From an uncultured delta proteobacterium (GTDB taxonomy: Bacteria; Desulfobacterota; Desulfobacteria; Desulfobacterales; UBA5852), in contig CAVSSY010000012.1 of assembly GCA_963730675.1 (NCBI GenBank), forward strand, positions 99,008 through 163,007: a DNA stretch of 64,000 nucleotides, in the 5' to 3' direction. The notes below the pieces were generated by a model. It saw nothing but the letters and a program-made list of their open reading frames with translations. It was not told where the DNA came from and ran no database searches. This document shows positions 22,528 through 41,914 of this stretch, piece by piece; positions within the stretch are counted from its first letter, which is position 1; each line of letters starts with the position of its first letter. Position numbers and translations under genes: made by a program.

Positions 22528-23577
22528 TTAGATTTTGGAAAACTGAATGACGACCTTGATGTCATCCGGCTTTCTCTCCAGTGCCCGCATGAAATGTTCA
22601 GGCTGTTCGCGCCGGGTGATGAGTTTCGACAACCAAGCGCGGTCCGCTCGGGCAAGATACTGGCCGGCCCTGTACCAGTGCCGCTTATTGGCGTTGACAC
22701 TCCCCACAATCACATTGTTCCGAAGCACCACGGCGGAAGCGACATCGGCGATGGTGGCCGAGGTGGCCGCGCCGCCATGACCGATACCGGCTAAACACAC
22801 AATCCCGTTCGCCCCGATCTTCCGGATGGATTCGGCGATGACTTGGCCCACGCCCGTGCATTCGATGATGGTATCCGGCTCGAAATCAAGATCCTTCACA
22901 CGGCCGGCGTGATACGTTCCGCCAAGTTCCCGCACCAGATCCGCCTTGAGGCCACCCTCGGCCCGGCTGAGCACGTGCACATCCAACCCGTATATTTTGG
23001 TGAAGAGCGCCGCGAGCAGCGCAATCGGCCCGGCGCCTGTAATCAACGCGGTCCGGGGTTCCCAAAACGATCGCCGGCCAATCATGCCGACCTGCTCTAA
23101 GGCCTTGGCCACCACTGTGGCGGGCTCCAGCAGCACACCGAGGATCCCCAGGGCAGGATCGACCTTGATGGCGTATTCGGGCTCGATCCGCCAGCGCTCC
23201 GACATGAACCCGTGAATTTGTTTGATGCCGCGTTCGGTGTACTGTCCGTTGCGGCACATGTCCCATTCGCCCACGGCGCAGTTCGGGCAGGGCACCGGGT
23301 CGGGGCGGCGGACGATTCCGACCACCAGGTCGCCTTTTTTAAATGCGCCCCCTGGACCCGGTTCGATGACGCGGCCAAGGGATTCGTGCCCGAGCACGAG
23401 GCGCGTCTGGCCCGGTGGGGCCCAGCCGTACTTGCCCTCCACGATTTCGACGTCCGTCCCGCAAACGCCGACGGCGACGGCTTCCACCAGGATCGAACCC
23501 TCGTGCACAGCGGGCTCCGGAATATCTTCGAGCCGGGTCGTCCCGGGCTTTAACGGTTCTACCGTAATCGCTTTCAT
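22528..23577 (-). CDS. zinc-dependent medium-chain dehydrogenase (glucose 1-dehydrogenase/threonine dehydrogenase-like)
   Basis: Start MKAITVEP with GGAGG upstream. Contains VGVCGTDVEI and GHESLG zinc/catalytic motifs and the GAGPIALL Rossmann motif. ATGA overlap with the upstream GH13 gene. Confidence 0.8.
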   Translation of the reverse strand: MKAITVEPLKPGTTRLEDIPEPAVHEGSILVEAVAVGVCGTDVEIVEGKYGWAPPGQTRLVLGHESLGRVIEPGPGGAFKKGDLVVGIVRRPDPVPCPNCAVGEWDMCRNGQYTERGIKQIHGFMSERWRIEPEYAIKVDPALGILGVLLEPATVVAKALEQVGMIGRRSFWEPRTALITGAGPIALLAALFTKIYGLDVHVLSRAEGGLKADLVRELGGTYHAGRVKDLDFEPDTIIECTGVGQVIAESIRKIGANGIVCLAGIGHGGAATSATIADVASAVVLRNNVIVGSVNANKRHWYRAGQYLARADRAWLSKLITRREQPEHFMRALERKPDDIKVVIQFSKI

Positions 23578-25094
23578 GAGCTTACCTCCAAAGGTAAAGT
23601 GTGAGGCCTTCCATTTTTCGGCCGCCATCGGATCAGGACATGGTATCCCCAGGGGGGAAGGTCCACATACAATCCCGGGTTGATCATCTCGTTGCCACTG
23701 CATTCATACATTTGGCCGGTAAAGAGGTCGGTCATCTGCCAGGCCTTGCCCGTGGGGTCATCCCAGGGCAGCCGCACGTGCCCCTGGGCACCCGCGTCTG
23801 AGAAATTTACCACGATCAGGTAATGCGCTCCGGCGCTGCGCCAGCACCAGGCAACAAGGTCTCGGTAAGTTGCATTATCCGGCCAGCCGGTTCGCTCACA
23901 GAGCTGCCAGTTACCGTTCCTCATCCCTTCAGAGGAAGCGGCGTTTAGAAGCGTGTGGTAAAAACCCGGGAGGTCAGGGTCGACGGGCTCCATAGGACGG
24001 CGACCGAGGAAGACAGGAACCCTGGCTTGTCTTCCCTCGAACTGACCTTCATGAAAGAGTTTTGCCCCCGGAATCGTCGCAATGATCACGGCGGCGGCGC
24101 GCTCCTTTTGGGGAGCAAAGACTGCAAGGGCCCGGTGTTCGTCATGGTTTTCGATGAAACGGACCAGCTTTTCCTGGTAGGCGAGGTCGGCGCAAAGATG
24201 CCGTCGCACGTTCTCCGCGGAGTCGTGCTCCAGACGGTCGTACAGGCGTTTGTCGTAACAGTAGTCAAACCCCTGCTGCTGGAGCTCCCAAGCGAGATCC
24301 CAATAAGCCTCTGCCATAAAGAGGAAATCCGGATGCGCTTTCTTGACGGCGACAATCACCTCAGGCCAGTACTCGGTTGCCGGCCGTCGACCCGCGCGGT
24401 GACCCCAGGTGCGTTCGAAAACCTGGTTCAGCACGAGCATCGCCATATCGCAGCGCACGCCATCGCTCTGGCCAGCGATATCCGCAAGGGTCGCGATCAC
24501 CGCCTGCCGGAGCCCCGGCTGAAAGGCGTTGAGCTGGAGCACATCCGGCCATGCCGGGAAGAAAGGATCCCGACCACAGGCGAATACCTTCCCTCCCACC
24601 TCGATGAAGGACGCCGGATCATTCCGCGCATCGTCAACGTTCCCCTGAACGAAGTATTCGGGGTAATCGATGACCCATGGATGGTCCGGCGCCACGTGGT
24701 TGGGAACAAAGTCAAGGATAAGCCGCAGCCCGCGTTTACGGAGCATGCTTCGTGCGGTGGCAAGTCCCTTTGGCCCTCCGAGATTTTCATCGACGACATA
24801 TCGCCGCACGCAATAGGGCGAGCCGACATTGTCCTCCGCCGCATAGTCAGGCAAGGCTCTGCGGAAATCCTCGAGAAGTTCTTGGTTTCGCAAGGAGATC
24901 TCGATTCCGGCCGGGCTCCGCTCCCACACCCCCATGAACCACACGGCGTCAAATCCATGTGAGGCAATCTGATCCCACTCCTCCATCGGCATCGTGGCGA
25001 GATCTACCGGCCTCTTGTATTTCCAGCCGAGTTCGCGCAGCCAGACCCAGGTGTTGATTTCATAGATAACCGGATGTTTCGGCCATGGGTTCAT
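23574..25094 (-). CDS. alpha-amylase family (GH13) glycoside hydrolase
   Basis: Conserved GH13 regions DFVPNH, DGVRCDMA, FMAEAYW and FIENHDE. Start moved to MNPWPKHPVIYEINTW. Confidence 0.85.
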   Translation of the reverse strand: MNPWPKHPVIYEINTWVWLRELGWKYKRPVDLATMPMEEWDQIASHGFDAVWFMGVWERSPAGIEISLRNQELLEDFRRALPDYAAEDNVGSPYCVRRYVVDENLGGPKGLATARSMLRKRGLRLILDFVPNHVAPDHPWVIDYPEYFVQGNVDDARNDPASFIEVGGKVFACGRDPFFPAWPDVLQLNAFQPGLRQAVIATLADIAGQSDGVRCDMAMLVLNQVFERTWGHRAGRRPATEYWPEVIVAVKKAHPDFLFMAEAYWDLAWELQQQGFDYCYDKRLYDRLEHDSAENVRRHLCADLAYQEKLVRFIENHDEHRALAVFAPQKERAAAVIIATIPGAKLFHEGQFEGRQARVPVFLGRRPMEPVDPDLPGFYHTLLNAASSEGMRNGNWQLCERTGWPDNATYRDLVAWCWRSAGAHYLIVVNFSDAGAQGHVRLPWDDPTGKAWQMTDLFTGQMYECSGNEMINPGLYVDLPPWGYHVLIRWRPKNGRPHTLPLEVSS

Positions 25095-25111
25095 TGCTTC
25101 GCCTCCGGTTC

Positions 25112-27829
25112 CTATTTTCCGCGAATGAAGGCCGCCGCCTTGCCACCTTCGAGCACCTTTTTTGCATCGAGCAATCCGAAGAGTTGGATCGTCTTCGCTA
25201 CCACACCTGTCCATCCCGTCTGGTGGCTGGCACCCAACCCCGCCCCGTTATCCCCTTGGAAATACTCGAAGAACAGGATGTGATCGCGCCAGTGGGGGTC
25301 GGTTTGAAACTTCTCGGTGCCACCGTAGACAGGACGCTTGCCCTCCGCGTTCCGCAGGAAGATCCGGCTGAGCCGATCGGCAATTTCCTTGGCGACCTCG
25401 AAGAGATTCATCATTTTTCCCGATCCCGTGGGGCATTCGACCTTGAAGTTGTCGCCGTAGTAAAGGTAGAAGTTCAGCAGCCCCCTGATGAGGATGACAT
25501 TGACCGGCATCCAGACGGGTCCCCGCCAGTTGGAGTTGCCGCCGAACATGCCGGTGTTCGATTCGGCCGGCAAGTAGTCGACGCGGTAGTTCTGACCGCC
25601 CGCCTGGAAGACGTAAGGGTGCTGCGCGTGGAACTTGGAGAGCGAGCGGATGCCGTAAGGACTCAGAAACTCGTTTTCATCCAGCATCTTCGCGAGGATC
25701 CGACGCAGCCGCTCCGGGTTGACCAGGGCGATCAGCCCCCGTTCGGCCACCCCAAAATGACCGGGACCCGTGGGGTGGATGGACTCCAGGAGTTCCGGCA
25801 TCTGGCGCATGCGTGCCAGGAGACCGGCCATTGCCTGCGGAACGCGCTCGCGCTGCCATTTCTCGATCACCGTCGTGGCGCACAGGGGCAACAACCCCAC
25901 CATCGAGCGGACCTTGAGCCGGGTCCCGCTGCCGTCGGGGAGCCGCAACAGGTCGTAGTAGAAGCCGTCCTCCTCATCCCACATGCCATCCTGCCCGGAT
26001 GTGTTCATGGCGGCGGCGATATAGAGAAAATGCTCCACGAACTTGAAAACCATGTCCTCATAGACGTGGTCATGGCTGGCGAGCTCAACCGCGAGCTCGA
26101 GCATGTTCTGGGTGAAGAGCGCCATCCAGGCTGTGCCGTCCGCCTGTTCCAGATAGCCTCCCGTCGGAAGGGGGGCACTGCGGTCGAAGACGCCGATGTT
26201 GTCGAGGCCGAGAAAACCGCCTTCGAACACATTCTTCCCGAAGCGGTCCTTGCGGTTCACCCACCAGGTGAAATTCAGCAGGAGCTTGTTGAACGCCGAC
26301 TTGAGGAAATCGACGTCCGCCTCGCCGCGCAGGGCCTGCTCGGTGCGGTGCAGGAAAAGCGTCGCAAAGGCGTGGACCGGGGGGTTCACGTCGCTGAAGT
26401 TCCACTCGTAGGCGGGGAGCTGGCCGCTGGGATGGAGGTAGAGCCCGCGGAGCATCAGTTCCAACTGCTCCTTAGCGAAGTCGGGATCCACGATCGAGAT
26501 CGGCAGCGTGTGGAAGGCAAGGTCCCAGGCCGCGTACCAGGGGTACTCCCACTTGTCGGGCATCGAGATGACATCGTCGTTGATCATGTGGAACCACTCC
26601 CGGTTCCGGAATTTGCGACTTCCGTGATGGAGGGGATGGGCGCGGTGCTCCTCCAGCCACGAATCGGCGTCGAAGTAATAATACTGTTTGGACCAGAGCA
26701 TGCCGGCAATGGCCTGCCGCATCACGTTGGCAGCGTCTGGGGAGACCGAGGGCGGGGTAACGGAGCGGTAGAACTCATCCGCCTCCCGCAACCGCGCGGC
26801 CAGGATTTCGTCAAAGTCCGGCCCGAAGGGGGATTTCTTATCCTTACCGGAGGGAGGCTGGCCGGTGAGCCGGAGCCGCACCGTCGCCGATTGGCCGGGG
26901 TCGACGGTGAGCCGATAGTGCGCCGCGGCCTTGGTGCCGAGCCGGTCGGGGTTCACCGTATCCCGGCGGCCCTGGACCACGTAATTGTTGATACCGTCTT
27001 TGAGGTAAGGACCCACGTCCGGGTAGTCGAGGCGAAGTTGGGCGTGGTTGGTTGAGTTCTCGGTAAAAAGCAGCGGCGCATCCCCTTCGCAATACAGGTC
27101 GTACACCCCGAGTACGGGATGCATTGCTGCAATCGCGCGGGTGCCTGACGGGCCCTCGACCTGCTTGAGCGTCGGTTTTTCGGAAGGCTTGGTGATCCAT
27201 GACGCCCAGTCGTTTCGGAACCACAGGGTCGGCAGCACGTGCAGCTCGGCGGCCTCCGGCCCCCGGTTGGCCGCCGTGATCGCGATCAGGATATCCTCCG
27301 GGCCGGCCTTGGCGTATTCCACGAATACATCGAAGTAGCGGTCTTCCTTGAAGACACCCGTGTCAAGAAGCTCGTACTCCATTTCGTTGCGGGTGCGGCG
27401 CCGGTTCGTCTCCACCAAGTCGGCATAGGGATAGGCCGCTTGGGGATACTTGTAGAGGTATTTCATGTAGGCGTGGGTCGGCGTGTTGTCGAGATAAAAG
27501 TAATATTCCTTGACGTCTTCGCCGTGGTTGGCCTCGCTGTTGGTAAGCCCAAAGAGGCGTTCCTTGAGAATGGAATCCTTGCCGTTCCACAGCGCAACGG
27601 CAAAACAGAGTCGCTGCTTGTCGTCGGAGATCCCTCCCAGGCCGTCTTCGCCCCAACGATACGCCCGGGAACGAGCGTGATCATGGGTGAAAAAGTCCCA
27701 GGCGTCGCCGTTTTCGCTGTAATCCTCGCGGACGGTTCCCCATTGACGTTCGCTCAGGTAAGGACCCCACTTCTTCCAGGGAATTTTTCCCGTTCGGCTT
27801 TCTTCAAGACGAGATTGTTCGGTATTCAT
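25112..27829 (-). CDS. GH63-like glucosidase (MGH1/mannosylglycerate-hydrolase-like)
   Basis: 905 aa. The N-terminus WKKWGPYLSERQWGTVREDYSENGDAWDFFTHDHARSRAYRWGEDG is typical of bacterial GH63-like glucosidases. Confidence 0.75.
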   Translation of the reverse strand: MNTEQSRLEESRTGKIPWKKWGPYLSERQWGTVREDYSENGDAWDFFTHDHARSRAYRWGEDGLGGISDDKQRLCFAVALWNGKDSILKERLFGLTNSEANHGEDVKEYYFYLDNTPTHAYMKYLYKYPQAAYPYADLVETNRRRTRNEMEYELLDTGVFKEDRYFDVFVEYAKAGPEDILIAITAANRGPEAAELHVLPTLWFRNDWASWITKPSEKPTLKQVEGPSGTRAIAAMHPVLGVYDLYCEGDAPLLFTENSTNHAQLRLDYPDVGPYLKDGINNYVVQGRRDTVNPDRLGTKAAAHYRLTVDPGQSATVRLRLTGQPPSGKDKKSPFGPDFDEILAARLREADEFYRSVTPPSVSPDAANVMRQAIAGMLWSKQYYYFDADSWLEEHRAHPLHHGSRKFRNREWFHMINDDVISMPDKWEYPWYAAWDLAFHTLPISIVDPDFAKEQLELMLRGLYLHPSGQLPAYEWNFSDVNPPVHAFATLFLHRTEQALRGEADVDFLKSAFNKLLLNFTWWVNRKDRFGKNVFEGGFLGLDNIGVFDRSAPLPTGGYLEQADGTAWMALFTQNMLELAVELASHDHVYEDMVFKFVEHFLYIAAAMNTSGQDGMWDEEDGFYYDLLRLPDGSGTRLKVRSMVGLLPLCATTVIEKWQRERVPQAMAGLLARMRQMPELLESIHPTGPGHFGVAERGLIALVNPERLRRILAKMLDENEFLSPYGIRSLSKFHAQHPYVFQAGGQNYRVDYLPAESNTGMFGGNSNWRGPVWMPVNVILIRGLLNFYLYYGDNFKVECPTGSGKMMNLFEVAKEIADRLSRIFLRNAEGKRPVYGGTEKFQTDPHWRDHILFFEYFQGDNGAGLGASHQTGWTGVVAKTIQLFGLLDAKKVLEGGKAAAFIRGK

Positions 27830-28195: not shown

Positions 28196-30550
28196 TCATG
28201 ATCGGCCGAGGAGCCGGCTGTTGCTGACTTGCCTGCCGACCATTTCCCTGATGATCGTGATGGTTTCGTGGGCCGCCTCTTGGGGGTCCAGGGCCGTATC
28301 GGCAATATTGCAGACCAGTTTCGTAATATCATGATTGATTTTCTTGGCCGTCCAGGTCGTGCCCTTGGTAACCGTAATGTAGACGGAATAGGAGTGATGC
28401 ATGGTCCCCGGCCGTTCACCGATGATGTGAAGAATCCCTCGAAAAGCATGGGGATCCGCGTTCTCGAACAGCAGCTCGCCGATCCGGTAGCCGGCCCGGA
28501 CCCGTCCGCCGGTGACCACGATGTTTTTCTCGCTCATGGGTACATTGGCCTCGGCCAGCAATTTCCGCAGTTCATCGACATAGGGCATCAGATGATTTTT
28601 ATCCATTAGGGCCTTGGCGTTCAGGCCGTCGGAGATCACGATCTGGCCCTTGGGAAGATTGGCGCCCCATGAATTTCTCAGCTTTTCCAGTATTTCGATG
28701 GATTCGGGCGTCAGCTTTTCACCGGAGGCAGGCTGGGCGATATAGTCTTCCCGGTCCCTGGACAATGTGCTGACCGGCACGGCATTGGGGATGGTCTTGA
28801 CAAATCCCGGGGTGAACTCGGCCCAGAGGGACACCTTGGCGTCATCGTAATAGGACTTCACTTTGGCTTCGAGCTGCGGGTTGAGATCCCAGAGTTGCTT
28901 GCCGTGGCCGGTGGCCAGATCGACGCCCCGATCCTCGACTTCTTTCATTTTCTTCCGGCCTTCGGCATAGATGGCGTCCTTGGAACGCTTGTCGCCCTTG
29001 GCCTGGCAGTACCGGTAATAGACCCAGAGGGGATCGCCGAAGTGCTCGGTATAGGCGTTGTTGGCATCGACGATCCCGAGCCGTTGATAGAACTCCCACA
29101 TCGCATCGTTGACCTTGTAGCCGAACTTCTCCCGGATGCGCACATGGTCCTGAAAGGCCGTTGAAAGGTAGCTCAACATGGGGTCGTTCTTGGTGGGCAG
29201 CGCAATCAGGTAGGCGGGATTGGCCGGCATGATCTGGTCCTGGCACCAATCCAGGTCGTCCAGGGTGACGTCCATGTGCAAGGTGGAGCAGATATCGAGA
29301 CCGATGGTCAATCCATGCAGTTTCCCCATGGCGATATCCTCCAGGCAGCAGCGCACCAGTTGCTCGCGGGTCTTGAAGACCTCCGGCCCGATGAAACCGG
29401 CCACGTCATTGACATGGAGCCACGCGCCCTGGGACTGCCCTTTTGCCAATTCCATCGCCACCGCCCGGCTGAAGCCGTACTTCCGGGATTCGAGCACCAT
29501 CATGTCCACACCGTTCTCAGCCCCATTGGTGAACTCGGACCCCTGGCCGGTCTCAAAATAGAGCCCGTAGCGTTGGCCTTCCTTGGATTTGGCATACTTC
29601 AAGATCTTATCAATGGTGACATCGAACGTCTGGTTGCATTCATCGGTTCCGGCCAGGCTCTGGAACATCGTTTCGACCGATCCCGGATATTGATCGGCGA
29701 CTTCCGCCTGGACATCGATGTGGGAAAGGACGCACCAGGGGATGATATCGTTCAGCTGGAAGGTGTCGACCACGTCCTTGAGCGCTTCTTCAACGGCCGC
29801 GACACTGGCGACCTGGCTGTCCACGGGGTTGGTCCCGATGACGATGTCGCCGGTGGCATAGGCAAAGGCGTTAAATGTCTGCCACTGGACGTCGTCGGGA
29901 TGGTCGGTGGGAGAGTTGGGCTGGATACGGGCGCCCATATAGCCTTTGGCCCCCATTTGGGTGCCCGGCAGGGGGTTGAATATCTTTCGATCGAGCGCGA
30001 TCAACTCGTCGTTGGTCATCAGTTTCGGGACGCAGCCGATGGTGTCGCTGGTCAGGCCATACATGACGCCTTTGATGTCCGATTCGGATTGGGTCAGGAG
30101 GAATTCCTTGAGCGCCCCCATGGTCCAGTCTTTGACCTTCTCGTACTGGGCCTGGTCCGTGGTCTTCCAGAGCAACTTCTGCAAATCGTCCACAAACACG
30201 GGATGGGCATAGAGATCCTTGATCGTCGTATTGGCCAGAAGCTCCCGGGCGATGTTCCGGGTGGCGTCATCCCTGGCGCCCACCCCGATGGTCAGATCGC
30301 CTTCCTTGAAATCGTTGGCGGCGCCGATCACCTGCTGATAGAGCGTCTGATCGAATTTCCCTTTTGTGCGCTTGATATAGGCAAAAACGTCCTCGCCCTT
30401 CTTCATCTCCTGAAGTTTAACAGGCTCGGCAAGGGCTCGCCTCGCAGCCAGCGACAAACCTGCAAGGGCAGCGCCGGCAGCACCCATCATAACAAGAAAC
30501 GTTCGACGGTGAATGCCTTCATGCTCATTCGGCAACCAATTCTTATCCAT
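28196..30550 (-). CDS. ethanolamine ammonia-lyase-like EutB-EutC fusion protein with twin-arginine (Tat) signal peptide
   Basis: N-terminus MDKNWLPNEHEGIHRRTFLVMMGAAGAALAGLSLAARRALA/EP. EutB blocks LYFETGQGSEF, VAGFIGPEVF, LEDIAMGKLHG. EutC blocks IVISDGLNAKA, GGRVRAGYRIGELL, IIGERPG. ATG 30548-30550 has AAAGGGGA upstream. Confidence 0.85.
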   Translation of the reverse strand: MDKNWLPNEHEGIHRRTFLVMMGAAGAALAGLSLAARRALAEPVKLQEMKKGEDVFAYIKRTKGKFDQTLYQQVIGAANDFKEGDLTIGVGARDDATRNIARELLANTTIKDLYAHPVFVDDLQKLLWKTTDQAQYEKVKDWTMGALKEFLLTQSESDIKGVMYGLTSDTIGCVPKLMTNDELIALDRKIFNPLPGTQMGAKGYMGARIQPNSPTDHPDDVQWQTFNAFAYATGDIVIGTNPVDSQVASVAAVEEALKDVVDTFQLNDIIPWCVLSHIDVQAEVADQYPGSVETMFQSLAGTDECNQTFDVTIDKILKYAKSKEGQRYGLYFETGQGSEFTNGAENGVDMMVLESRKYGFSRAVAMELAKGQSQGAWLHVNDVAGFIGPEVFKTREQLVRCCLEDIAMGKLHGLTIGLDICSTLHMDVTLDDLDWCQDQIMPANPAYLIALPTKNDPMLSYLSTAFQDHVRIREKFGYKVNDAMWEFYQRLGIVDANNAYTEHFGDPLWVYYRYCQAKGDKRSKDAIYAEGRKKMKEVEDRGVDLATGHGKQLWDLNPQLEAKVKSYYDDAKVSLWAEFTPGFVKTIPNAVPVSTLSRDREDYIAQPASGEKLTPESIEILEKLRNSWGANLPKGQIVISDGLNAKALMDKNHLMPYVDELRKLLAEANVPMSEKNIVVTGGRVRAGYRIGELLFENADPHAFRGILHIIGERPGTMHHSYSVYITVTKGTTWTAKKINHDITKLVCNIADTALDPQEAAHETITIIREMVGRQVSNSRLLGRS

Positions 30551-30748
30551 AACGTATCCCCTTTTGATTAGAGGTGCTAAATCCAATTTTCCTTGGTGCT
30601 GCCCTTTGTCAGAGCCGTCTCCAGCGGACCTTGGGTGACCTATTAGCCCTCATCGTTTCAACATTGCCAATTTTATCTGTTGACGACGTCCGTTGCCTGG
30701 CATCCTTAGTAGAATTCCCTGCAGCACAAGACCTGGGCTTTCTCCCGG

Positions 30749-31915
30749 CTACCCGAGCCGTGTGCCTTCTACCTCGAGCCCACCGCCTTGAGGAAGCTTG
30801 CTCCAGCTTCTTTTTTCCCATTCTTCCTTGAGCACTTCCGTCGCCGCCTGCTCCAGGAACTCCGGAGCTGCCCATTCATCCACATCAAAGTCGTTCTTGA
30901 TGTAGCCGTGGCTCTTCATGAAATCCTTTCCGATCTTGACGCACTGCAGGTTCTGCGCACTCAGGCTCGGCACCATGTCGACGTCCTTGATCCCCCGGTA
31001 GGTGTGCTCGGCGTCCAGGTAGAACGTCTGCCGGTTAAGGATTTCTGCGGCGGCGTGCTTGTTCCTGTTTGCCCAGCGGCCGACCTTGATCATGGCCTTC
31101 ATGTAAGCGACGACCAGCTCAGGGTGTTCCTTGGCCATCACGTCGGTACAGGTGATGACGGCGGGAGTGTTGGCAACCTGCACGGTCCAGTCAGGGTGCT
31201 TGGACAGGTCGAAGATGGCCTTAATTTCGCCCGTGGCCTCCGAAAGCTGTCCTAATTGTCCCATCTGGTTGTAGATGGCATCAACGGTTCCGTCGAGCAG
31301 TGCCTTTTCCAATGGCCGGAAGGCATAATCGTGCTTGTGGTCACGGCGCATCCACAGCTCGGATGGGTTGTTCATGGGCGGGACCAGCATCTCGGGCTTG
31401 TCGTACCAGTCATCCGGGTACGGAAACTCGACAAGCTCAATCTCATCCACGGTCATGTCGTTTAACATCAGAATATTCTCGATGCCCATGTGCTCCTGGA
31501 TGCGCCACCAGTCGTTCTTGATAGTGTTCAGGCTTTTGGTGATGCCGATCTTCGTGCCCTTCAGATCCTTTACACGGAAGATCTTGTCGCGGGCGCGTAC
31601 CTGCATCACCCCTCCCTCGTAGACCCACGTCGACCCAAGCAGTACGGTGCGGCGGAGGTCGGCGTGCACCTGGATCGGCGGGTACAGGCCACCGAAGCGG
31701 ATGAGGTTGTCGAGATTATGGATGTAGTGCGGGTACCAGTTGTTCTCGGGTGCGTGACGGAAGTAGGCGTACTCGACGCCGATCTTCTTGTACTCCTCGC
31801 GGCACCAGCCCAGTTCCTGGTCGACATTGTTGGCGGATACCATGGGGCAGTTGGTGAACCACACCTCTTTCCAATTCAATGCCACTGTTGTACTCACGCG
31901 TTTCTGTTGGGTCAT
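30749..31915 (-). CDS. NMT1/SsuA-fold protein without signal peptide, DszB (2-hydroxybiphenyl-2-sulfinate desulfinase)-like
   Basis: 388 aa, no signal peptide. FTNCPMVSA, IRFGGLYPPI and C-terminal DEWAAPEFLEQA resemble (from memory) DszB YSNCPVPNA, TRFGGEIPPL and DQWAAPEFLNNS. Confidence 0.45.
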   Translation of the reverse strand: MTQQKRVSTTVALNWKEVWFTNCPMVSANNVDQELGWCREEYKKIGVEYAYFRHAPENNWYPHYIHNLDNLIRFGGLYPPIQVHADLRRTVLLGSTWVYEGGVMQVRARDKIFRVKDLKGTKIGITKSLNTIKNDWWRIQEHMGIENILMLNDMTVDEIELVEFPYPDDWYDKPEMLVPPMNNPSELWMRRDHKHDYAFRPLEKALLDGTVDAIYNQMGQLGQLSEATGEIKAIFDLSKHPDWTVQVANTPAVITCTDVMAKEHPELVVAYMKAMIKVGRWANRNKHAAAEILNRQTFYLDAEHTYRGIKDVDMVPSLSAQNLQCVKIGKDFMKSHGYIKNDFDVDEWAAPEFLEQAATEVLKEEWEKRSWSKLPQGGGLEVEGTRLG

Positions 31916-32167: not shown

Positions 32168-32881
32168 TCAATACCCCGATGGCGGGTCACTGACCATGTA
32201 AACGACGGTACCGCTCTCGTAACCGCGGCTGTACCATGTGGTCCCGCATTGGTAGAAGATGGCACCGTTGACGGTCACCGTCGTTGCGGAACAGGGGAGC
32301 ACCGTCACGGTGTTCACATAGACGGTGTGTGAATGATAGTCGTCCTCCCTGTTCGCCCTGACAGCGGCTCCCACGGCGGCCCCGACAACAAACGCCGCCG
32401 CCTCGTCGTTATGGTGGTGCCAGTGGTTGTCCCAATCGCCCTCATCCTCGATAAAGTCCTGCCGGTCCTCCCGGTTTTGATTCTGGTGGTCCTGCCAGTC
32501 TTCGCGGGCATCATCGCGATTGCCCTCCCGATTCCCCTGTCGATCGCCGCCGGCTTCCTGTCGCTGCCCCTGGCGTTGAGATGCTGTTTCCCGCTGGCCG
32601 GCTGATGGCTGTGCTTGGCGCTGTGACACTTTTGCCTGACTGGTCGAGGGCTGCGCTTTGCGCTGCGAGACTCCCGCCTGACTGGCTGTTGGTCGTGACG
32701 CCGAGCGGGACGAGAAGCTGCCGCCACTGGCGGCGCTGCTGCGTGAGAAACCGCCTCCGCCGGAACGACCACCACCACCCCGCCCGCCACCTCGGCCGGC
32801 TTCGGCCATGCCGGAAAAGGTGGTCACAACCAGGAACATTGCTCCGATAAACAGTGCGAACGCTTTAAACTTGGGCGTCAT
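32168..32881 (-). CDS. secreted low-complexity (Gly/Arg/Ser/Gln-rich) protein with conserved C-terminal domain
   Basis: Start MTPKFKAFALFIGAMFLVVTTFSGMAEA, with AAAGGAGA upstream and an ATGA overlap with the DUF2092 gene. GRGGGRGGGGRSGGGG and QAxVSQRxAQPS repeats; C-terminus YQCGTTWYSRGYESGTVVYMVSDPPSGY. Confidence 0.6.
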   Translation of the reverse strand: MTPKFKAFALFIGAMFLVVTTFSGMAEAGRGGGRGGGGRSGGGGFSRSSAASGGSFSSRSASRPTASQAGVSQRKAQPSTSQAKVSQRQAQPSAGQRETASQRQGQRQEAGGDRQGNREGNRDDAREDWQDHQNQNREDRQDFIEDEGDWDNHWHHHNDEAAAFVVGAAVGAAVRANREDDYHSHTVYVNTVTVLPCSATTVTVNGAIFYQCGTTWYSRGYESGTVVYMVSDPPSGY

Positions 32882-33714
32882 TGTTGATCTCCTTTCGGCA
32901 TGGGCAGGGAACCCTTCTGGCGCACGGGGGCCAGGAACGGGATCTGCTCCGCACTTGCCGTCGGGTTGAATGCAAAACTGTTTGCGGCAACCTTGGGCGA
33001 TAGGTCCCAATCCAACAAATCGGCCCGAAACTGAGGGTCTCCCGGCGCATTCTTGTAGGTCAGGATGATCCGACGCGGCAACGGCTGCTCGCCCTGAGCG
33101 ATCCATATTTGCAAATCGACATCCGCGGAACGGACCGCCAGGTGGTCGGTGGGGACGTCGAAGAGGAAATTTTCTTCCACGTAATCGATGGATGTCACCT
33201 TCTTCTTCATATCCTTTGGAAAGCTGGTAAGGAACATCCGCGCCAGGGGCAGGGTAATCTGAAGATCCCTGACCAGATAGACAATGGCATCATCCACCGT
33301 GCCGGCTTTTTCCACGCGGGCGTATACATTGTCGTCGGCCTTGAAGACAGTGAGGCTCTCGCCGTCGAACAGGACCAGTCCCCGATCGCCGTCGCTGCGT
33401 TCGGCATCTACTCGCAAACGGTCAGGACGTTGAAGCAGCACCTGGTGCTTCCCGCCGAACTCGATCCGCTGGCCGTTGGGCTGGATCGCATCGTAGCCGC
33501 TGCGAATGGTCACGCTGAAAACCCGCGCCTTGGCGATGAAGTCAGCCATTTTATAAAAAATCGCCGTTGCTTCCGGATCCTGTTCCGCCGAGGTTGCCGC
33601 CGGCATCTTATCGGCAGCCAGCGCCGGGCCTGCGCCGAGTGCCAGAACAACCGCCAAGGCTGAAAATACGACCCACAGCGGACCAATAAGTCCGAAACGT
33701 ATGATCGGTTTCAT
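32878..33714 (-). CDS. DUF2092-like periplasmic protein (LolA-like fold)
   Basis: Signal peptide ...GAGPALA. Sequence pattern (FSVTIRSGYDAI...RLRVD...LFDGESLTVF) recalls DUF2092. Confidence 0.6.
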   Translation of the reverse strand: MKPIIRFGLIGPLWVVFSALAVVLALGAGPALAADKMPAATSAEQDPEATAIFYKMADFIAKARVFSVTIRSGYDAIQPNGQRIEFGGKHQVLLQRPDRLRVDAERSDGDRGLVLFDGESLTVFKADDNVYARVEKAGTVDDAIVYLVRDLQITLPLARMFLTSFPKDMKKKVTSIDYVEENFLFDVPTDHLAVRSADVDLQIWIAQGEQPLPRRIILTYKNAPGDPQFRADLLDWDLSPKVAANSFAFNPTASAEQIPFLAPVRQKGSLPMPKGDQQ

Positions 33715-33802: not shown

Positions 33803-33872
33803 TTCTTTAAAGTCCGGCCCGACCGCACAGCTCCATCGGCCGGATTACTTTTCCGCTGCCAGATATTCCAGG
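33803..33872. repeat. direct repeat, copy 2; overlaps the 3-prime end of the Fe-S protein gene
   Basis: See 32052-32121. Here the minus-strand frame encodes the genuine C-terminus ..EERRLEYLAAEK*. Confidence 0.7.
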
Positions 33873-34987
33873 CGCCGCTCTTCCCATTCCGCCATGCTGG
33901 TGGGCGTATGGAACCACTCTTCCGCAGACACCGGCTCAAGCTCGATGGCATCGGTTGGGCAGCCAGTCACGCAGACGCCGCATCCGATGCACTTTGCTCT
34001 TTCAACCAGTGATTTATTTTCATTCTTCGCATCTTCAGTGATGGCCTCGGCCGGGCATCGCTCGATGCACGCACCGCAGACTATGCATTCATCCGGATCG
34101 ATGACGGCACGGTAGTTCGATCTCTGCGCCCCCTCTGACACACCGGCGAGTTTCTGACCGTGAAGCACCCCGCAGCAGCAACCGCAGCAGTTACAAGTAC
34201 CGACAAACTGAGGCGTCTCCGCTTCCATGACGTAGCCATAGACCGCGAGGTGAATGTGCCCCATCTGCTCGAGTTCACCAAAAAGTTTTAACGCCGCCTC
34301 CCGGTCAAGTACGTTTTCCGAAAGTGGCGTCTGGGGTGGGACGCCTACAAAACCGCAACGCTTCATCGGCATATCGCAACTGTGGCCGTGCAATAACTCC
34401 CTCTCCCTTTTACATACGCAGGGCAACACCACAAATCGTTCGTGCCGTTTGAAATGCGCATCGATGTCGAGGTGGGACTCCATCACGGCCATCTGCTCCG
34501 GCTTGAGCGAGCCGCGCACCGGAACGACGCCCAGTACGCCGGGTCGCGGTGATAATATCCGCTCGCCACCGCCCTCGATCACGTATTGCTCGAAGAGCTC
34601 GGCAAATTCCTTGCCCAGCAGCCGCATATTGGCTTCGTACCAGCCCACCAGGAACGGGCCCAGCCGGTACTTCTTCGCGCCATCGACCTGAAGCGTCACG
34701 CCGGGAAGTGCATGTCCGGGTGCGTCCAAGCGAACCAGGCGCCGGGGTATCAGGCTTTCGCACAACACCGTTACGTCGGCCTCATCCATGCCGACCCGCT
34801 TCGCAATTTCGGCAGCGGTCTCGGGAAATCGGGTCAATTGGCCGGCAAGAGCAACCTCCTCCGGGCTGAACGCCATCTTAATCAGTTTTATTTCCACCCC
34901 GGATTTCGTCCTGGGAAAACCATGGGGAAGCGCCTCCTGCGCAGCCGCAAGGCGTTCGTAGATATCGACTGTTTCCGTATCGCTCAT
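33845..34987 (-). CDS. 4Fe-4S dicluster domain protein with Cys-rich CNCCGCCCG motif
   Basis: 380 aa. Contains VLPCVCK, GTCNCCGCCCGVLHG, and two ferredoxin motifs CIVCGACIERCP and CIGCGVCVTGCP. Confidence 0.8.
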   Translation of the reverse strand: MSDTETVDIYERLAAAQEALPHGFPRTKSGVEIKLIKMAFSPEEVALAGQLTRFPETAAEIAKRVGMDEADVTVLCESLIPRRLVRLDAPGHALPGVTLQVDGAKKYRLGPFLVGWYEANMRLLGKEFAELFEQYVIEGGGERILSPRPGVLGVVPVRGSLKPEQMAVMESHLDIDAHFKRHERFVVLPCVCKRERELLHGHSCDMPMKRCGFVGVPPQTPLSENVLDREAALKLFGELEQMGHIHLAVYGYVMEAETPQFVGTCNCCGCCCGVLHGQKLAGVSEGAQRSNYRAVIDPDECIVCGACIERCPAEAITEDAKNENKSLVERAKCIGCGVCVTGCPTDAIELEPVSAEEWFHTPTSMAEWEERRLEYLAAEK

Positions 34988-35029
34988 TGATCATCCCCTT
35001 CGCATATTGTTTTCCTGTGCGGAAAAATG

Positions 35030-36001
35030 TCATTTCTTATCATTGTCTATCCTCCCGCTGCGTCCAAACGATTCGTCGATGATGGTCTGTAACCGTTGAA
35101 CCAAATCATCGGACGGGGTTTTGTAATCGTCCAGTTCATACACCACGCCCAGCATCTCGTACTTGCCCAGGCCGAAGCGGTGATACGGCAGCAGCTCGTA
35201 GTCGATCACATTCTTGTGCGGGCGTATGAATTTCAACACCGCCCGGATGTGCGCCTCATCGGCGTTTACGCCGGGGATCAGCGGCGTGCGGGCGATGAAG
35301 TCGATGTCGGGAAACGTATCGTAGGCTTTTTTGAAGTTCGCCAGGATCCGCTTGTTCTCCGCCCCGGTCCACTTCTTGTGCCGCTCCGGGATCGTCAGCT
35401 TGTGGTCGTGCAGCATCGTATCCACGTGAGGCAGTACCTTTTCCAGATTGGCCCACGGCACATTGCAGGCGGTTTCGATGGCCGTATTGATGCCGCGCTT
35501 GTGCGCGCCTTCCAGCAATGCGGCGCTGAAGTCCGGCTGCAGTAAACACTCGCCGCCGCTCAGGGTAATCCCGCCCCCGGTATTGCGATAGAAGGAGCTG
35601 TCCTTCTCCACCTCGTCCAGCACTTCGTCCACCGTCATTCGTTTGCCGAACATCTCGAGCGCGCCTGTCGGACAGAGCGAGGCATGGGTCTCGTCGCAGT
35701 CCATGGCCAGCTGCCAGTTGACCTTCACGTGGTCATCGTCGCCCTCCACGAAGTAGAAAGCGCCTTCCGGAAAAGGTGGCTCCAGGCAGAGGCCGCACTT
35801 CCTGCCGGTGCACTTTTTGGGATCGTAGGCAATTTCGGGCTTTATCCGGATGCTTTCGGGATTGCCGCACCATTTGCAGCGCAGCGAGCACCCTTTCAGG
35901 AAAACCGTCGTTCGGATGCCAGGGCCGTCATGGCTGCAATAGCGTTGGATATTCAGCACGGTGCCTGTTATTTCGGCTGGTTTTTTGGGTTGCTTCTTCA
36001 T
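35030..36001 (-). CDS. glycyl-radical enzyme activating protein (radical SAM, with auxiliary ferredoxin-like insert)
   Basis: CSHDGPGIRTTVFLKGCSLRCKWCGNPES (CX3CX2C) followed by extra Cys clusters (CTGRKCGLC, CDETHASLCPTG). 323 aa. Confidence 0.9.
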   Translation of the reverse strand: MKKQPKKPAEITGTVLNIQRYCSHDGPGIRTTVFLKGCSLRCKWCGNPESIRIKPEIAYDPKKCTGRKCGLCLEPPFPEGAFYFVEGDDDHVKVNWQLAMDCDETHASLCPTGALEMFGKRMTVDEVLDEVEKDSSFYRNTGGGITLSGGECLLQPDFSAALLEGAHKRGINTAIETACNVPWANLEKVLPHVDTMLHDHKLTIPERHKKWTGAENKRILANFKKAYDTFPDIDFIARTPLIPGVNADEAHIRAVLKFIRPHKNVIDYELLPYHRFGLGKYEMLGVVYELDDYKTPSDDLVQRLQTIIDESFGRSGRIDNDKK

Positions 36002-36013
36002 TGTTCGGCCCCC

Positions 36014-37183
36014 TTATTTTCCACAGTAAATACCCAGTGAATCGGCAATCTTCAGGAATTCACTGTCGGCAGACACCGTTCTGATTTTGTTGATGGCTTC
36101 CGCCAGCGGTACGAACTTGATCTCCGGAGGAACAAACGCCACCATAGCGCCGCTTTTCCCGGCTTTCAGGGCCTGCAATGCCCCGGCGCCGTAGGCCATC
36201 CCCAGTTGCCGGTCGACGGCGGTTGGTTTCCCGCCCCTGACCCAGGGACCGATCACGAGGGGATAGGTTTCCTCGGCGATCAGCAGCTGCAGCTCCGTTG
36301 CCACGGCCTCGGCGGCCTGGCCTGACCGATGAATGACATGCTCGCTAGCTTCACCGGTTGCCAGCGGCGAAAGCGACGCTTTCAGTGAGGATGGACGCTC
36401 CTTTTTTTGCGCTTTTTTGATGAATTTGGCGCCTTCGGCCACCACCACCAGTCCATAGGGCCTTCGGGGTGAGATCTTGTCTTTCAATCTCCCGGCCAAG
36501 ATTTTAAGGTCGCAGGAAATTTCGGGCATCAGCACGGCATCGGCGCAAGCGGCAATACCGGCCTGCAATGCCACCCATCCGGCCTGCGCTCCCTGTACCT
36601 CCACGACCGCAATTCTGCGGGCCGACTGGGCGGCCTGACGGGCACGGTCGAGCATTTCGATGGTGAAACTCAGCGCGCTGTTAAACCCGAAGGAGACCGC
36701 GGTCGACGCGATATCGTTGTCGATGGACCTGGGAACGCAAACCGCATTGAGACCCTTCCGATGGAGCTTGTAAAGAATGCTCAGGCCCTGCACCCCAACG
36801 ACGGAAATCAATCCATCGATATTTTCCGTCTTCAACCGTTTCAACAATTCATCGGACATGTCCACTTCTTCAACCATGTCGTCCTCATTGACCTGACGCA
36901 CATGAAACGGATCTACCCTGGCCGACTGGCCAAGGACACCCCCGGCGGAGGGATCGAGGTTTTCAATCAGCTGCGGGCTGAGGGTAACCAGTCCGCCATC
37001 GGAGTAGCGCTCCGGGTGCAGCACCCCCTCAAACCCATCCCGGATGCCGACCATCTCCCACCCCATTCTACCGGCCGCCATGGCGGCGCCGGTAATTACG
37101 GCATTTATTCCCGGAACAAAGCCGGCACCCACAATGATGGCAATCCGTCTGTGGAAACTGCCATGTCCTATTTCTGTTGTCAT
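36014..37183 (-). CDS. PfkA-fold (6-phosphofructokinase family) protein with degenerate nucleotide-binding motifs
   Basis: Colinear with E. coli PfkA as I recall it. IAIIVGAGFVPGINA aligns to IGVLTSGGDAPGMNA, VVGVQGLS to IGGDGS, PRSIDNDI to PGTIDNDI, and VVEVQGAQAG to VVEVMGRYCG. Confidence 0.7.
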   Translation of the reverse strand: MTTEIGHGSFHRRIAIIVGAGFVPGINAVITGAAMAAGRMGWEMVGIRDGFEGVLHPERYSDGGLVTLSPQLIENLDPSAGGVLGQSARVDPFHVRQVNEDDMVEEVDMSDELLKRLKTENIDGLISVVGVQGLSILYKLHRKGLNAVCVPRSIDNDIASTAVSFGFNSALSFTIEMLDRARQAAQSARRIAVVEVQGAQAGWVALQAGIAACADAVLMPEISCDLKILAGRLKDKISPRRPYGLVVVAEGAKFIKKAQKKERPSSLKASLSPLATGEASEHVIHRSGQAAEAVATELQLLIAEETYPLVIGPWVRGGKPTAVDRQLGMAYGAGALQALKAGKSGAMVAFVPPEIKFVPLAEAINKIRTVSADSEFLKIADSLGIYCGK

Positions 37184-37295
37184 AATTGACCCCCATTACT
37201 GATTATTTTTGTTTTATCGCTGTGGCTCATATCAAGTAAACTCGGTACGGCATGATCAAAACGTCACGCCGTACCGATCCACTCTCAGTTCAACA

Positions 37296-39725: not shown

Positions 39726-39813
39726 TTTTTTTCTCCTTTTGTTTTTTGTTTAAAGAATTAAAAGTCAGCCGGTTATGGCACGGTTTTTAAAGCCCAGACC
39801 CGGGTTAATATTT

Positions 39814-39827
39814 TCCGTGCGCACGGA
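39814..39827. promoter_or_regulatory. perfect 14-bp palindrome TCCGTGCGCACGGA, 89 nt upstream of the GRE start codon
   Basis: The sequence equals its own reverse complement and sits in AT-rich flanks within the 159-nt intergenic region. Confidence 0.4.
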
Positions 39828-39884
39828 TTAATCCTTATTTTTAAATTTTCTTCTCAGGGCGGTCACTGCGACGGGAACTTCCCA

Positions 39885-41732: not shown

Positions 41733-41914
41733 GGTTCGACCCCTTAGTGGTCTTGTCAGCACTTGAAGCGAAGACCTTCGCCATAAAGAACCAGACGATC
41801 ACCGGCACGGGAACCGCCGCAAAATCGTCACCAGCAATTTCGGGTCGAGGTTCGGAAAGGCGGTGATCGCCACGGCGTAGAACATGGCCACGATACCGAA
41901 GGCGTCCTGAATGT

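Follow-up and report, generated by a model that had tools for sequence, protein, structure and literature searches.

A 64,000-nucleotide stretch of DNA from an uncultured delta proteobacterium (contig CAVSSY010000012.1, positions 99,008 to 163,007), here called the window, carries on its minus strand a gene, eutBC, whose product joins the large (EutB) and small (EutC) subunits of ethanolamine ammonia-lyase (EAL) in a single chain. The chain is preceded by a predicted twin-arginine translocation (Tat) signal peptide (Table 1). EAL is a textbook coenzyme-B12 radical enzyme that has been studied only as a cytoplasmic or microcompartment-bound enzyme served by an ATP-driven reactivase. The EutB-EutC fusion itself is already known and was described for Pelobacter carbinolicus in 2012 (PMC3543383); what is new is a known enzyme with a predicted, unexpected compartment.

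Table 1. Features of the eutBC locus, in window coordinates.
Feature	Position	Strand	Description	Basis
eutBC fusion gene	28196..30550	minus	784 codons plus stop	Open reading frame listing, Pfam, NCBIfam, AlphaFold2
Predicted Tat signal peptide, residues 1-41	30428..30550	minus	n-region MDKNWLPNEHEGIH, h-region TFLVMMGAAGAALAGLSLAA, c-region RRALA, predicted cleavage between ALA and EP	
Twin-arginine codons R15 R16 (CGT CGA)	30503..30508	minus		Invariant columns among the leaders of relatives
Ribosome-binding site AAAAGGGGA	30557..30565	minus	Purine-rich, 6 nucleotides 5' of the ATG at 30550	Read from sequence
EutB (large-subunit) domain, residues 71-502	29045..30340	minus	TIM barrel with substrate site	Pfam, alignment, Foldseek
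Inter-domain linker, residues 503-567 (65 residues)	28850..29044	minus	Three confident helices; no Pfam domain	AlphaFold2, Pfam
EutC (small-subunit) domain, residues 568-777	28220..28849	minus	Motifs VISDGLN, GRVRAGY, IGERPG	Motifs, Pfam, Foldseek
Glycyl-radical enzyme cluster	33845-41762 plus 30749-31915	minus	CitMHS transporter, 809-residue glycyl-radical enzyme, PFK-family kinase, activase, 380-residue ferredoxin-domain protein, signal-less SsuA/NMT1-like protein	

Domains, substrate site, and fold

Domains, residues, and fold all place the window protein in the EutBC enzyme family. The motifs from which a preliminary description of this DNA had read a EutB-EutC fusion of 784 amino acids are all present in the translation, and Pfam recognizes both parts of the chain. 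The EutB domain is matched by PF06751 with 473.7 bits (E 7e-142) and by the NCBIfam EutB subfamily model NF011649 with 635 bits against a cut-off of 554. The EutC domain is matched by PF05985 with 105.5 bits against a cut-off of 25.8 (E 4e-30), and scores 78 bits with the NCBIfam EutC equivalog NF003971, which is below the cut-off of 230. Identity to the Escherichia coli subunits is about 31% for EutB (tblastn) and 27% for EutC (E 5e-11). A phmmer search against the PDB sequences returned Listeria EutB (E 3e-63), E. coli EutB (E 4e-60), and E. coli EutC (E 3e-5).

In E. coli EutB, we take R160, Q162, N193, E287, and D362 to be the residues that form hydrogen bonds with the substrate, a list that reportedly originates with Shibata (2010) and Mori (2014). 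A comparison with the E. coli enzyme, already proposed in the preliminary description, finds all five kept: in a MAFFT alignment, they correspond to R208, Q210, N241, E333, and D419 of the window protein, and they are invariant across the alignments of the fused EutBC family, members with a Sec-type leader (see below) included. F245 and F329 of E. coli EutB are likewise kept in the window protein and invariant across the family. The position of M392, which presumably lines the substrate pocket of the E. coli enzyme, is occupied by I449; it is isoleucine throughout the clade with Tat-type leaders and methionine in the Sec-type clade and the canonical enzymes.

An AlphaFold2 model of the window protein, built on an alignment of 47 sequences, reached a mean predicted local distance difference test score (pLDDT) of 82.9 and a predicted template modeling score of 0.83. 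The top Foldseek matches in the PDB are EAL structures, with 3abo_A for the EutB part (template modeling (TM) score 0.87 on the target) and 3abo_D/5ysr_D for the EutC part (TM scores 0.72-0.76); diol and glycerol dehydratases rank far lower. The linker between the two domains is modeled with helices at residues 507-517, 524-540, and 558-574 (mean pLDDT of about 84-97 in blocks of 10 residues), and many of its columns are invariant in the family alignments. It takes the place of the free N-terminus of EutC, which in enterobacteria holds a peptide for targeting to the microcompartment (PMC5821096). The radical chemistry with adenosylcobalamin (AdoCbl) is presumably the same as in canonical EAL.

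The leader of the window protein

The N-terminus of the window protein has the order MDKNWLPNEHEGIH-RR-TFLVMMGAAGAALAGLSLAA-RRALA, followed by EP. Compared with the Tat motif S/T-R-R-x-F-L-K, it reads HRRTFLV and continues with a 20-residue h-region, a basic c-region, and an AxA site. The leader is free of cysteine, and its best hydropathy on the Kyte-Doolittle scale over 12 residues is 2.07. Among the 155 six-frame open reading frames of at least 100 amino acids in the window, eutBC is the sole one to satisfy a simple Tat criterion (RR.[hydrophobic]2 and, behind it, a hydrophobic stretch free of charges). The best matches of the leader among hidden Markov models (HMMs) are the two Tat-signal models TIGR01409 (TAT_signal_seq) and PF10518. 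In the AlphaFold2 model, residues 1-40 have a pLDDT below 50, and a lone helix formed by residues 15-34 is detached from the fold. The N-terminus behaves as a Tat signal, and the Tat-like leader with an AxA site that had been proposed at the outset stands, with the periplasm as the predicted localization.

Leaders across the fused EutBC family

Comparison with the leaders of relatives raises the probability of export considerably. Among the 120 closest homologs (at least 75% identical to the window protein), 109 show [SH]RRxF[LI] with a hydrophobic stretch behind it. Of the remaining 11, one is a variant without the arginine pair (P0036), and most are shorter gene calls whose start lies past the motif. 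A scan of species-representative genomes gave at least 513 matching stretches for the clade as a whole. Fused EutBC with an export signal, of which the preliminary description had proposed to survey the Tat-tagged form, constitutes a large family and not a one-off. The analyses of loci use the best 80 of these stretches. Of their 77 full-length loci, 57 have a Tat-type leader, 16 have a classic Sec leader, and four are unclassified (a truncation at a contig end, an RR leader of low hydrophobicity, and two loci that do not match the anchor pattern). The Tat-type motif appears, for example, as SRRDLL or SRRELL in rhizobia and as RRDFLKL in Geobacteraceae.

When 86 distinct Tat-type leaders are aligned, the columns of R15 and R16 are the only invariant ones, and the mean column identity is 37% in the leader versus 79% in the whole protein. 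A functional signal peptide would be expected to show just this, an invariant arginine pair within a drifting leader. At the DNA level, the pair is encoded in 58 loci by all six arginine codons in 22 codon-pair combinations. The leaders are most often matched by TIGR01409 among NCBIfam models (70 of the 86 at E ≤ 1, best E 6e-7) and by PF10518 among Pfam models (61 of the 86 at E ≤ 1), and the model of the methylamine dehydrogenase (MADH) small subunit is among their weak matches. As a negative control, the Tat model matched none of 40 leaders from the Sec clade.

Tat leaders typically differ from Sec leaders by being longer, less hydrophobic, and basic in their c-region. Within the family, the length before the conserved GEDVF anchor is 52 residues in the Tat clade versus 32 in the Sec clade, the best 12-residue hydropathy is 1.98 ± 0.22 versus 2.73 ± 0.26, and lysine or arginine is present in the c-region of 81 of the 86 Tat-type leaders. 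Cleavage sites of the AxA type are found in most relatives. In 10 of 167 Tat-type members, a lipobox cysteine stands at the end of the h-region in place of the AxA site, and several of these members continue with a tether rich in glycine, serine, and lysine after the cysteine. In the more distant fused lineages P0121 and P0130, an RR or RK motif occurs together with a lipobox.

The Sec sister clade (loci L064-L080, L030, L033, and L050; proteins P0271-P0390) is mostly about 57-65% identical to the window protein; for most Sec-type members in one of the family alignments, the range is 57-63%. Its leaders consist of MKR, a hydrophobic stretch of about 15-18 residues, and a small-residue cleavage site, typically S-x-A. 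All 113 full-length homologs of one member, that of locus L079, have such a short classic Sec leader, the cultured Geomonas sp. RF6 included. Every member of the Tat/Sec fused clade thus carries a predicted export signal. If the enzyme did not work outside the cytoplasm, it would be difficult to account for two types of export signal, and for lipoprotein variants as well, on a single orthologous enzyme.

Fused forms without a signal exist as well (P0140, P0143, and the about 30% identical P0193-P0260). Eukaryotic-looking fused proteins with long low-complexity insertions and N-terminal extensions (P0122, P0126, P0128, P0132, P0135, P0149, and P0258) take a branching position intermediate between the bacterial fusions that lack a signal and the exported clade. 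With 40-49% identity, five of them (P0122, P0126, P0128, P0135, and P0149) are nearer to the window protein than E. coli EutB is, and the extension of P0122 comprises about 400 residues. As signal-less fused lineages and eukaryote-like fused forms exist, the fusion is older than the signal.

Start codon and upstream region

The open reading frame extends over 28196..30586 on the minus strand and would yield 796 amino acids if counted from the TTG at 30586; the ATG at 30550 gives the 784-residue protein. The TTG is ruled out by the position of the ribosome-binding site and by the alignment of homologs, which starts exactly at MDKNW and not at the upstream codon. A start downstream of the twin arginines had been named in the preliminary description as an outcome that would overturn its reading. 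Such a start, at Met21 or Met22, is ruled out by the ribosome-binding site, by conservation from residue 1, and by the synonymous variation of the arginine codons, which indicates that the leader is translated and selected at the protein level. Several public gene calls (P0027, P0055, P0105 from Syntrophus gentianae, P0031, and P0085) begin at an internal methionine just past the arginine pair and comprise 763-765 residues versus about 784. They lose the n-region, and the Tat signal is thereby hidden from annotation pipelines. A riboswitch or structured RNA near eutBC was considered, but an Rfam search of the whole window returned no match, and a scan for promoters and terminators gave nothing above the shuffled background.

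Genomic neighborhood

In the window, eutBC stands alone, with gaps of 198 bp upstream and 366 bp downstream. A tblastn search with the Eut proteins of E. coli K-12 (taken from locus L081; E ≤ 1e-3; EutS not among the queries) matched only EutB and EutC in the 64 kb; eutA, H, J, E, G, D, K, L, M, N, T, and R gave no match. The absence of eutA, of the shell genes (K/L/M/N), of eutE, and of eutG noted in the preliminary description therefore holds. It is not unusual in itself, as the short eut locus of Pseudomonas aeruginosa also has no microcompartment components and no eutA among its four listed genes (PMC5821096). The same search of the 80 loci, each with up to 10 kb of flanking DNA, found no eutA, H, J, E, K, L, M, N, or T; EutG was matched in one locus, and EutD-like matches occurred in four.

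No operon partner is conserved throughout the 80 loci, and the neighborhoods are highly variable. A zinc alcohol-dehydrogenase family (f1) lies near eutBC in 28 loci, mostly of rhizobia and often directly upstream. Its member on Sinorhizobium meliloti pSymA (L082) is annotated as AdhP, and the order there is adhP, phosphoketolase, histidine phosphatase, glycosyl transferase, glucoamylase-family protein, and eutB. In four Desulfobacterota loci, an aldehyde:ferredoxin oxidoreductase is encoded directly upstream of eutBC. Neither the AdhP nor the aldehyde:ferredoxin oxidoreductase neighbors have a signal peptide, so the product of an exported EutBC must cross the membrane to reach them; it is plausible that acetaldehyde crosses the inner membrane. 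The Sec clade has neighbors of its own, namely a putative outer-membrane protein of the Gcw_chp type, a PotD-like solute-binding protein, a multi-transmembrane protein, a BtuFCD-type ABC transporter, and MoxR/VWA proteins. In several of its loci, the genes for the multi-transmembrane protein, the BtuFCD-like transporter, and MoxR/VWA come after eutBC.

Downstream of eutBC in the window (22528-27829), the encoded proteins are a GH63/MGH1-like hydrolase, a protein of the alpha-amylase family, and a medium-chain dehydrogenase/reductase (MDR) family member of the glucose-dehydrogenase type. The last of these (22528-23703) fell into family f1 by single linkage and was considered as AdhP; it is not counted as an AdhP neighbor because Pfam shows it to be of the glucose-dehydrogenase type. 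Upstream and on the same strand is the glycyl-radical enzyme (GRE) cluster, into which a DUF2092 protein and a glycine-rich secreted protein are inserted. The GRE scores far under the cut-offs of all named GRE families (the best is HypD, with 462 versus 1100 bits). L003, L004, and L006 have the cluster as well, with a nucleotide identity of 78-91% and likewise near eutBC, but in another arrangement. Its SsuA/NMT1-like gene (30749-31915), the nearest to eutBC, was considered as a partner of EutBC, either as a Tat hitch-hiker or as a chaperone. This was rejected since the family occurs in only three sources of the clustering and since DNA matches place the gene behind the GRE cluster, not eutBC, in L004 and L006; judged by these matches, it belongs with the GRE cluster.

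Further recurring neighbors are two pairs of secreted proteins, namely a DUF2092 protein with a protein rich in glycine, arginine, and glutamine (32168-33714 in the window, and L005, L009, and L066) and a DUF3300 with a DUF2950 protein (L002, L010, L051, and L060). Carbohydrate-active genes stand beside eutBC in the window and in rhizobia (pSymA in L082; L020, L031, L036, L048, and L052). The rhizobial set comprises a 1290-residue glycosyl transferase/phosphorylase-like protein, a glucoamylase-family protein, a phosphoketolase, and a CBS+BON protein. These carbohydrate-active neighbors may reflect a shared stress or hypoxia island, or chance.

Distribution and horizontal exchange

The best 80 loci belong to metagenome-assembled genomes (MAGs) of Desulfobacterota (Syntrophaceae, Syntrophobacteraceae, and Desulfobacterales), to Geobacteraceae and Thermodesulfovibrionales, and, at 70-75% identity, to cultured aerobic Rhizobiales of the genera Sinorhizobium, Ensifer, Rhizobium, Mesorhizobium, Bradyrhizobium, Phyllobacterium, and Microvirga. 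In S. meliloti (pSymA) and S. fredii, it lies on megaplasmids. The pSymA of S. meliloti 1021 was not among the plasmid matches, and this reference strain apparently lacks the gene.

Positions 28206-30568 of the window match positions 9983-12346 of L001, from another Desulfobacterota MAG, at 99.1% DNA identity over exactly the length of the gene. The flanking genes shared by the two are only 87-88% identical and differently arranged. In L004 and L006, the relation is reversed, with 85-86% identity for eutBC and 90-91% for the GRE cluster. These contrasting identities of gene and flanks suggest a recent, gene-sized exchange of eutBC. Such an exchange fits the variability of the neighborhoods, the fact that Desulfobacterota and Rhizobiales share 70-75% identity, and the presence of the gene on megaplasmids. 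Judged by these sequence comparisons, fused EutBC with a predicted export signal is a large, horizontally mobile family that extends to cultured rhizobia.

Proposed mechanism and alternatives

The gene probably encodes a functional AdoCbl-dependent EAL that is made as a single chain, exported by Tat, and released into the periplasm after cleavage behind ALA41. Tat-type EutBC would fold, and would probably bind AdoCbl, in the cytoplasm; the folded protein would then pass the Tat system, be cleaved after ALA41, and be freed in the periplasm. Since the whole cofactor site, at the EutB/EutC interface, is contained in one chain, one signal peptide would export the complete active unit. From ethanolamine or a close vicinal amino alcohol, the periplasmic enzyme would produce acetaldehyde and ammonia. 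The two would cross the inner membrane, with no need for a dedicated ethanolamine permease, and a cytoplasmic AdhP, an aldehyde:ferredoxin oxidoreductase, or a similar enzyme would handle the acetaldehyde. Aldehyde formation kept outside the cytoplasm would replace the microcompartment, and the periplasmic site would exclude the ATP-dependent reactivase. A wider proposition is that many bacteria carry out AdoCbl radical catalysis in their periplasm, with Tat members exported as B12-loaded holoenzymes and Sec members, which have BtuFCD-like genes beside them, exported unfolded and loaded with AdoCbl afterward, all without a reactivase; we give this an even chance. If true, coenzyme B12 would have to be pooled or handed over in the periplasm, and Tat would have a new cofactor class among its cargo.

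Several points weigh against a Tat-exported, periplasmic EAL. We know of no AdoCbl-dependent radical enzyme outside the cytoplasm. The window leader scores under the curated cut-offs of both Tat models (14.6 versus 16.7 bits for TIGR01409 and 17.8 versus 22.7 bits for PF10518). EAL of E. coli is reported to be an alpha6beta6 assembly of about 500 kDa, which is unlikely to pass Tat as a whole, so oligomerization would have to follow export. With no reactivase at hand, suicide inactivation would restrict turnover. The Sec clade implies that AdoCbl can be loaded in the periplasm, which weakens the case that Tat is needed for the export of a cofactor-loaded enzyme. For EutBC of P. carbinolicus, the organism in which the fusion was described, a signal is suggested only by the match of its gene layout to L075 and L079.

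That EutBC is exported but stays tethered to the periplasmic face of the inner membrane, by a leader that is uncleaved or, in some lineages, lipid-modified, is unlikely for the window protein, whose A-L-A site is followed by E-P and whose leader has no cysteine to be modified. Most relatives share AxA-type sites, too. The lipobox of the 10 Tat-type members nevertheless points to tethering in parts of the family, as do its combination with RR/RK in P0121 and P0130 and an anchor-like N-terminus in P0124. The 20-residue helix modeled at residues 15-34 would suit an anchor, and uncleaved Tat anchors exist, for instance in Rieske proteins. A cytoplasmic EutBC, with the RR leader as a vestige or a chaperone-binding remnant as in NarG, or with a start at Met21 or Met22, is very improbable. 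It would agree with all EALs characterized to our knowledge, which are cytoplasmic, with the gene calls that begin past the arginine pair (P0027, P0055, and P0105), and with the sub-threshold Tat scores of the window leader. Vestigial motifs decay, yet the pair is invariant in 86 of 86 leaders across phyla, and it is conserved together with the preceding residues at the protein level under synonymous codon turnover. Moreover, the ribosome-binding site precedes Met1, a start at Met21 would leave an uncharged hydrophobic N-terminus, and if export were not functional, neither the lipobox variants nor the change to Sec signals would make sense.

A further alternative accepts export and concerns the substrate, which in vivo could be another small vicinal amino alcohol, such as 2-amino-1-propanol or 1-amino-2-propanol, or a different compound. 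The isoleucine that replaces M392 throughout the Tat clade would fit such a change, as would the low identity to E. coli EutB (about 31%) and the EutC equivalog score of 78 instead of 230 bits. Around the window gene, there is no ethanolamine-specific regulator or permease, and its neighbors are glycoside hydrolases and an uncharacterized GRE cluster. The invariance of all five hydrogen-bonding residues and the recurrence of aldehyde-handling neighbors speak for ethanolamine, and P. carbinolicus, whose only eutBC genes are fused ones, ferments ethanolamine (PMC3543383). A different substrate is judged quite unlikely, and the preferred reading remains a Tat-exported EAL released into the periplasm.

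If that reading is true, EAL chemistry runs in the periplasm, too, and questions of B12 trafficking arise, namely holoenzyme export via Tat versus loading after export via Sec. The family would also offer a microcompartment-free answer to acetaldehyde toxicity and an example of a radical enzyme that copes without repair. For annotation, it matters that metabolic reconstructions treat the reaction as cytoplasmic and dependent on an ethanolamine transporter. Genetically tractable carriers are available in S. meliloti strains with the gene on pSymA (candidates are Rm41, SM11, and GR4) and in Ensifer adhaerens.

Comparison with known systems

A literature search found no paper that discusses the export of EAL; the Tat motif may be flagged by automated database annotation. 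The canonical EutB/EutC of E. coli and Salmonella (3ABO) has the same two folds and substrate-binding residues as the window protein. It differs in being composed of two subunits instead of a single 784-residue chain, and the window protein has a predicted export signal at its N-terminus instead of the microcompartment-targeting peptide with which canonical EutC begins in enterobacteria. Shell genes, eutA, eutH, and eutE are missing near the window gene, M392 is replaced by isoleucine, and identity is about 27-31%. The traits of long eut operons (shell proteins EutK/L/M/N, EutA, EutE/EutD, EutH, and the EutC encapsulation peptide) are not found in the window.

Short eut loci come closer. The operon of P. 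aeruginosa (PA4022-eat-eutBC) lacks microcompartment components, and its four listed genes include no eutA (PMC5821096); the short locus of Acinetobacter baumannii likewise has no microcompartment (PMC9426561). As in the window, there is no microcompartment in these loci, and they encode an aldehyde-oxidizing partner nearby. They differ in having separate, signal-less subunits and the permease Eat, with catalysis in the cytoplasm, whereas the window has a predicted export signal and no permease.

The fused eutBC of P. carbinolicus (Pcar_0491 and Pcar_0467; Aklujkar et al. 2012, PMC3543383) shares the EutB-EutC fusion with the window gene. The organism grows on and ferments ethanolamine although all its eutBC genes are fused and its whole genome lacks eutA, and no signal peptide or Tat motif is mentioned for the protein (PMC3543383). 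The flanks of its genes (solute-binding protein, multi-transmembrane protein, corrinoid-type ABC transporter, and MoxR/VWA) match the Sec-clade loci L075 and L079, and this gene layout suggests that EutBC of P. carbinolicus, which is not represented among the 80 loci or the named homologs, belongs to the Sec-type sister clade. In comparison, the window protein is of the Tat type and lacks those neighbors.

For the export of a B12 protein, corrinoid reductive dehalogenases (RdhA/PceA), already named in the preliminary description, offer a precedent, as they carry a Tat signal and are thought to be loaded with their cofactor before export. They have an unrelated fold, two iron-sulfur clusters, and a cob(I)alamin chemistry that proceeds without an adenosyl radical. 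The window protein has no Fer4 or RdhA match in Pfam and no RdhA among its Foldseek hits, and RdhA is an analogy for the Tat export of a B12 protein, not a relative. For the proposed division of labor between compartments, the copper amine oxidase TynA and MADH are functional parallels. They use oxidation by topaquinone or tryptophan tryptophylquinone and are not homologous to EutBC. Both convert a small amine to an aldehyde and ammonia in the periplasm, as proposed here for EutBC, with the aldehyde being oxidized in the cytoplasm, and the small subunit of MADH has a Tat leader.

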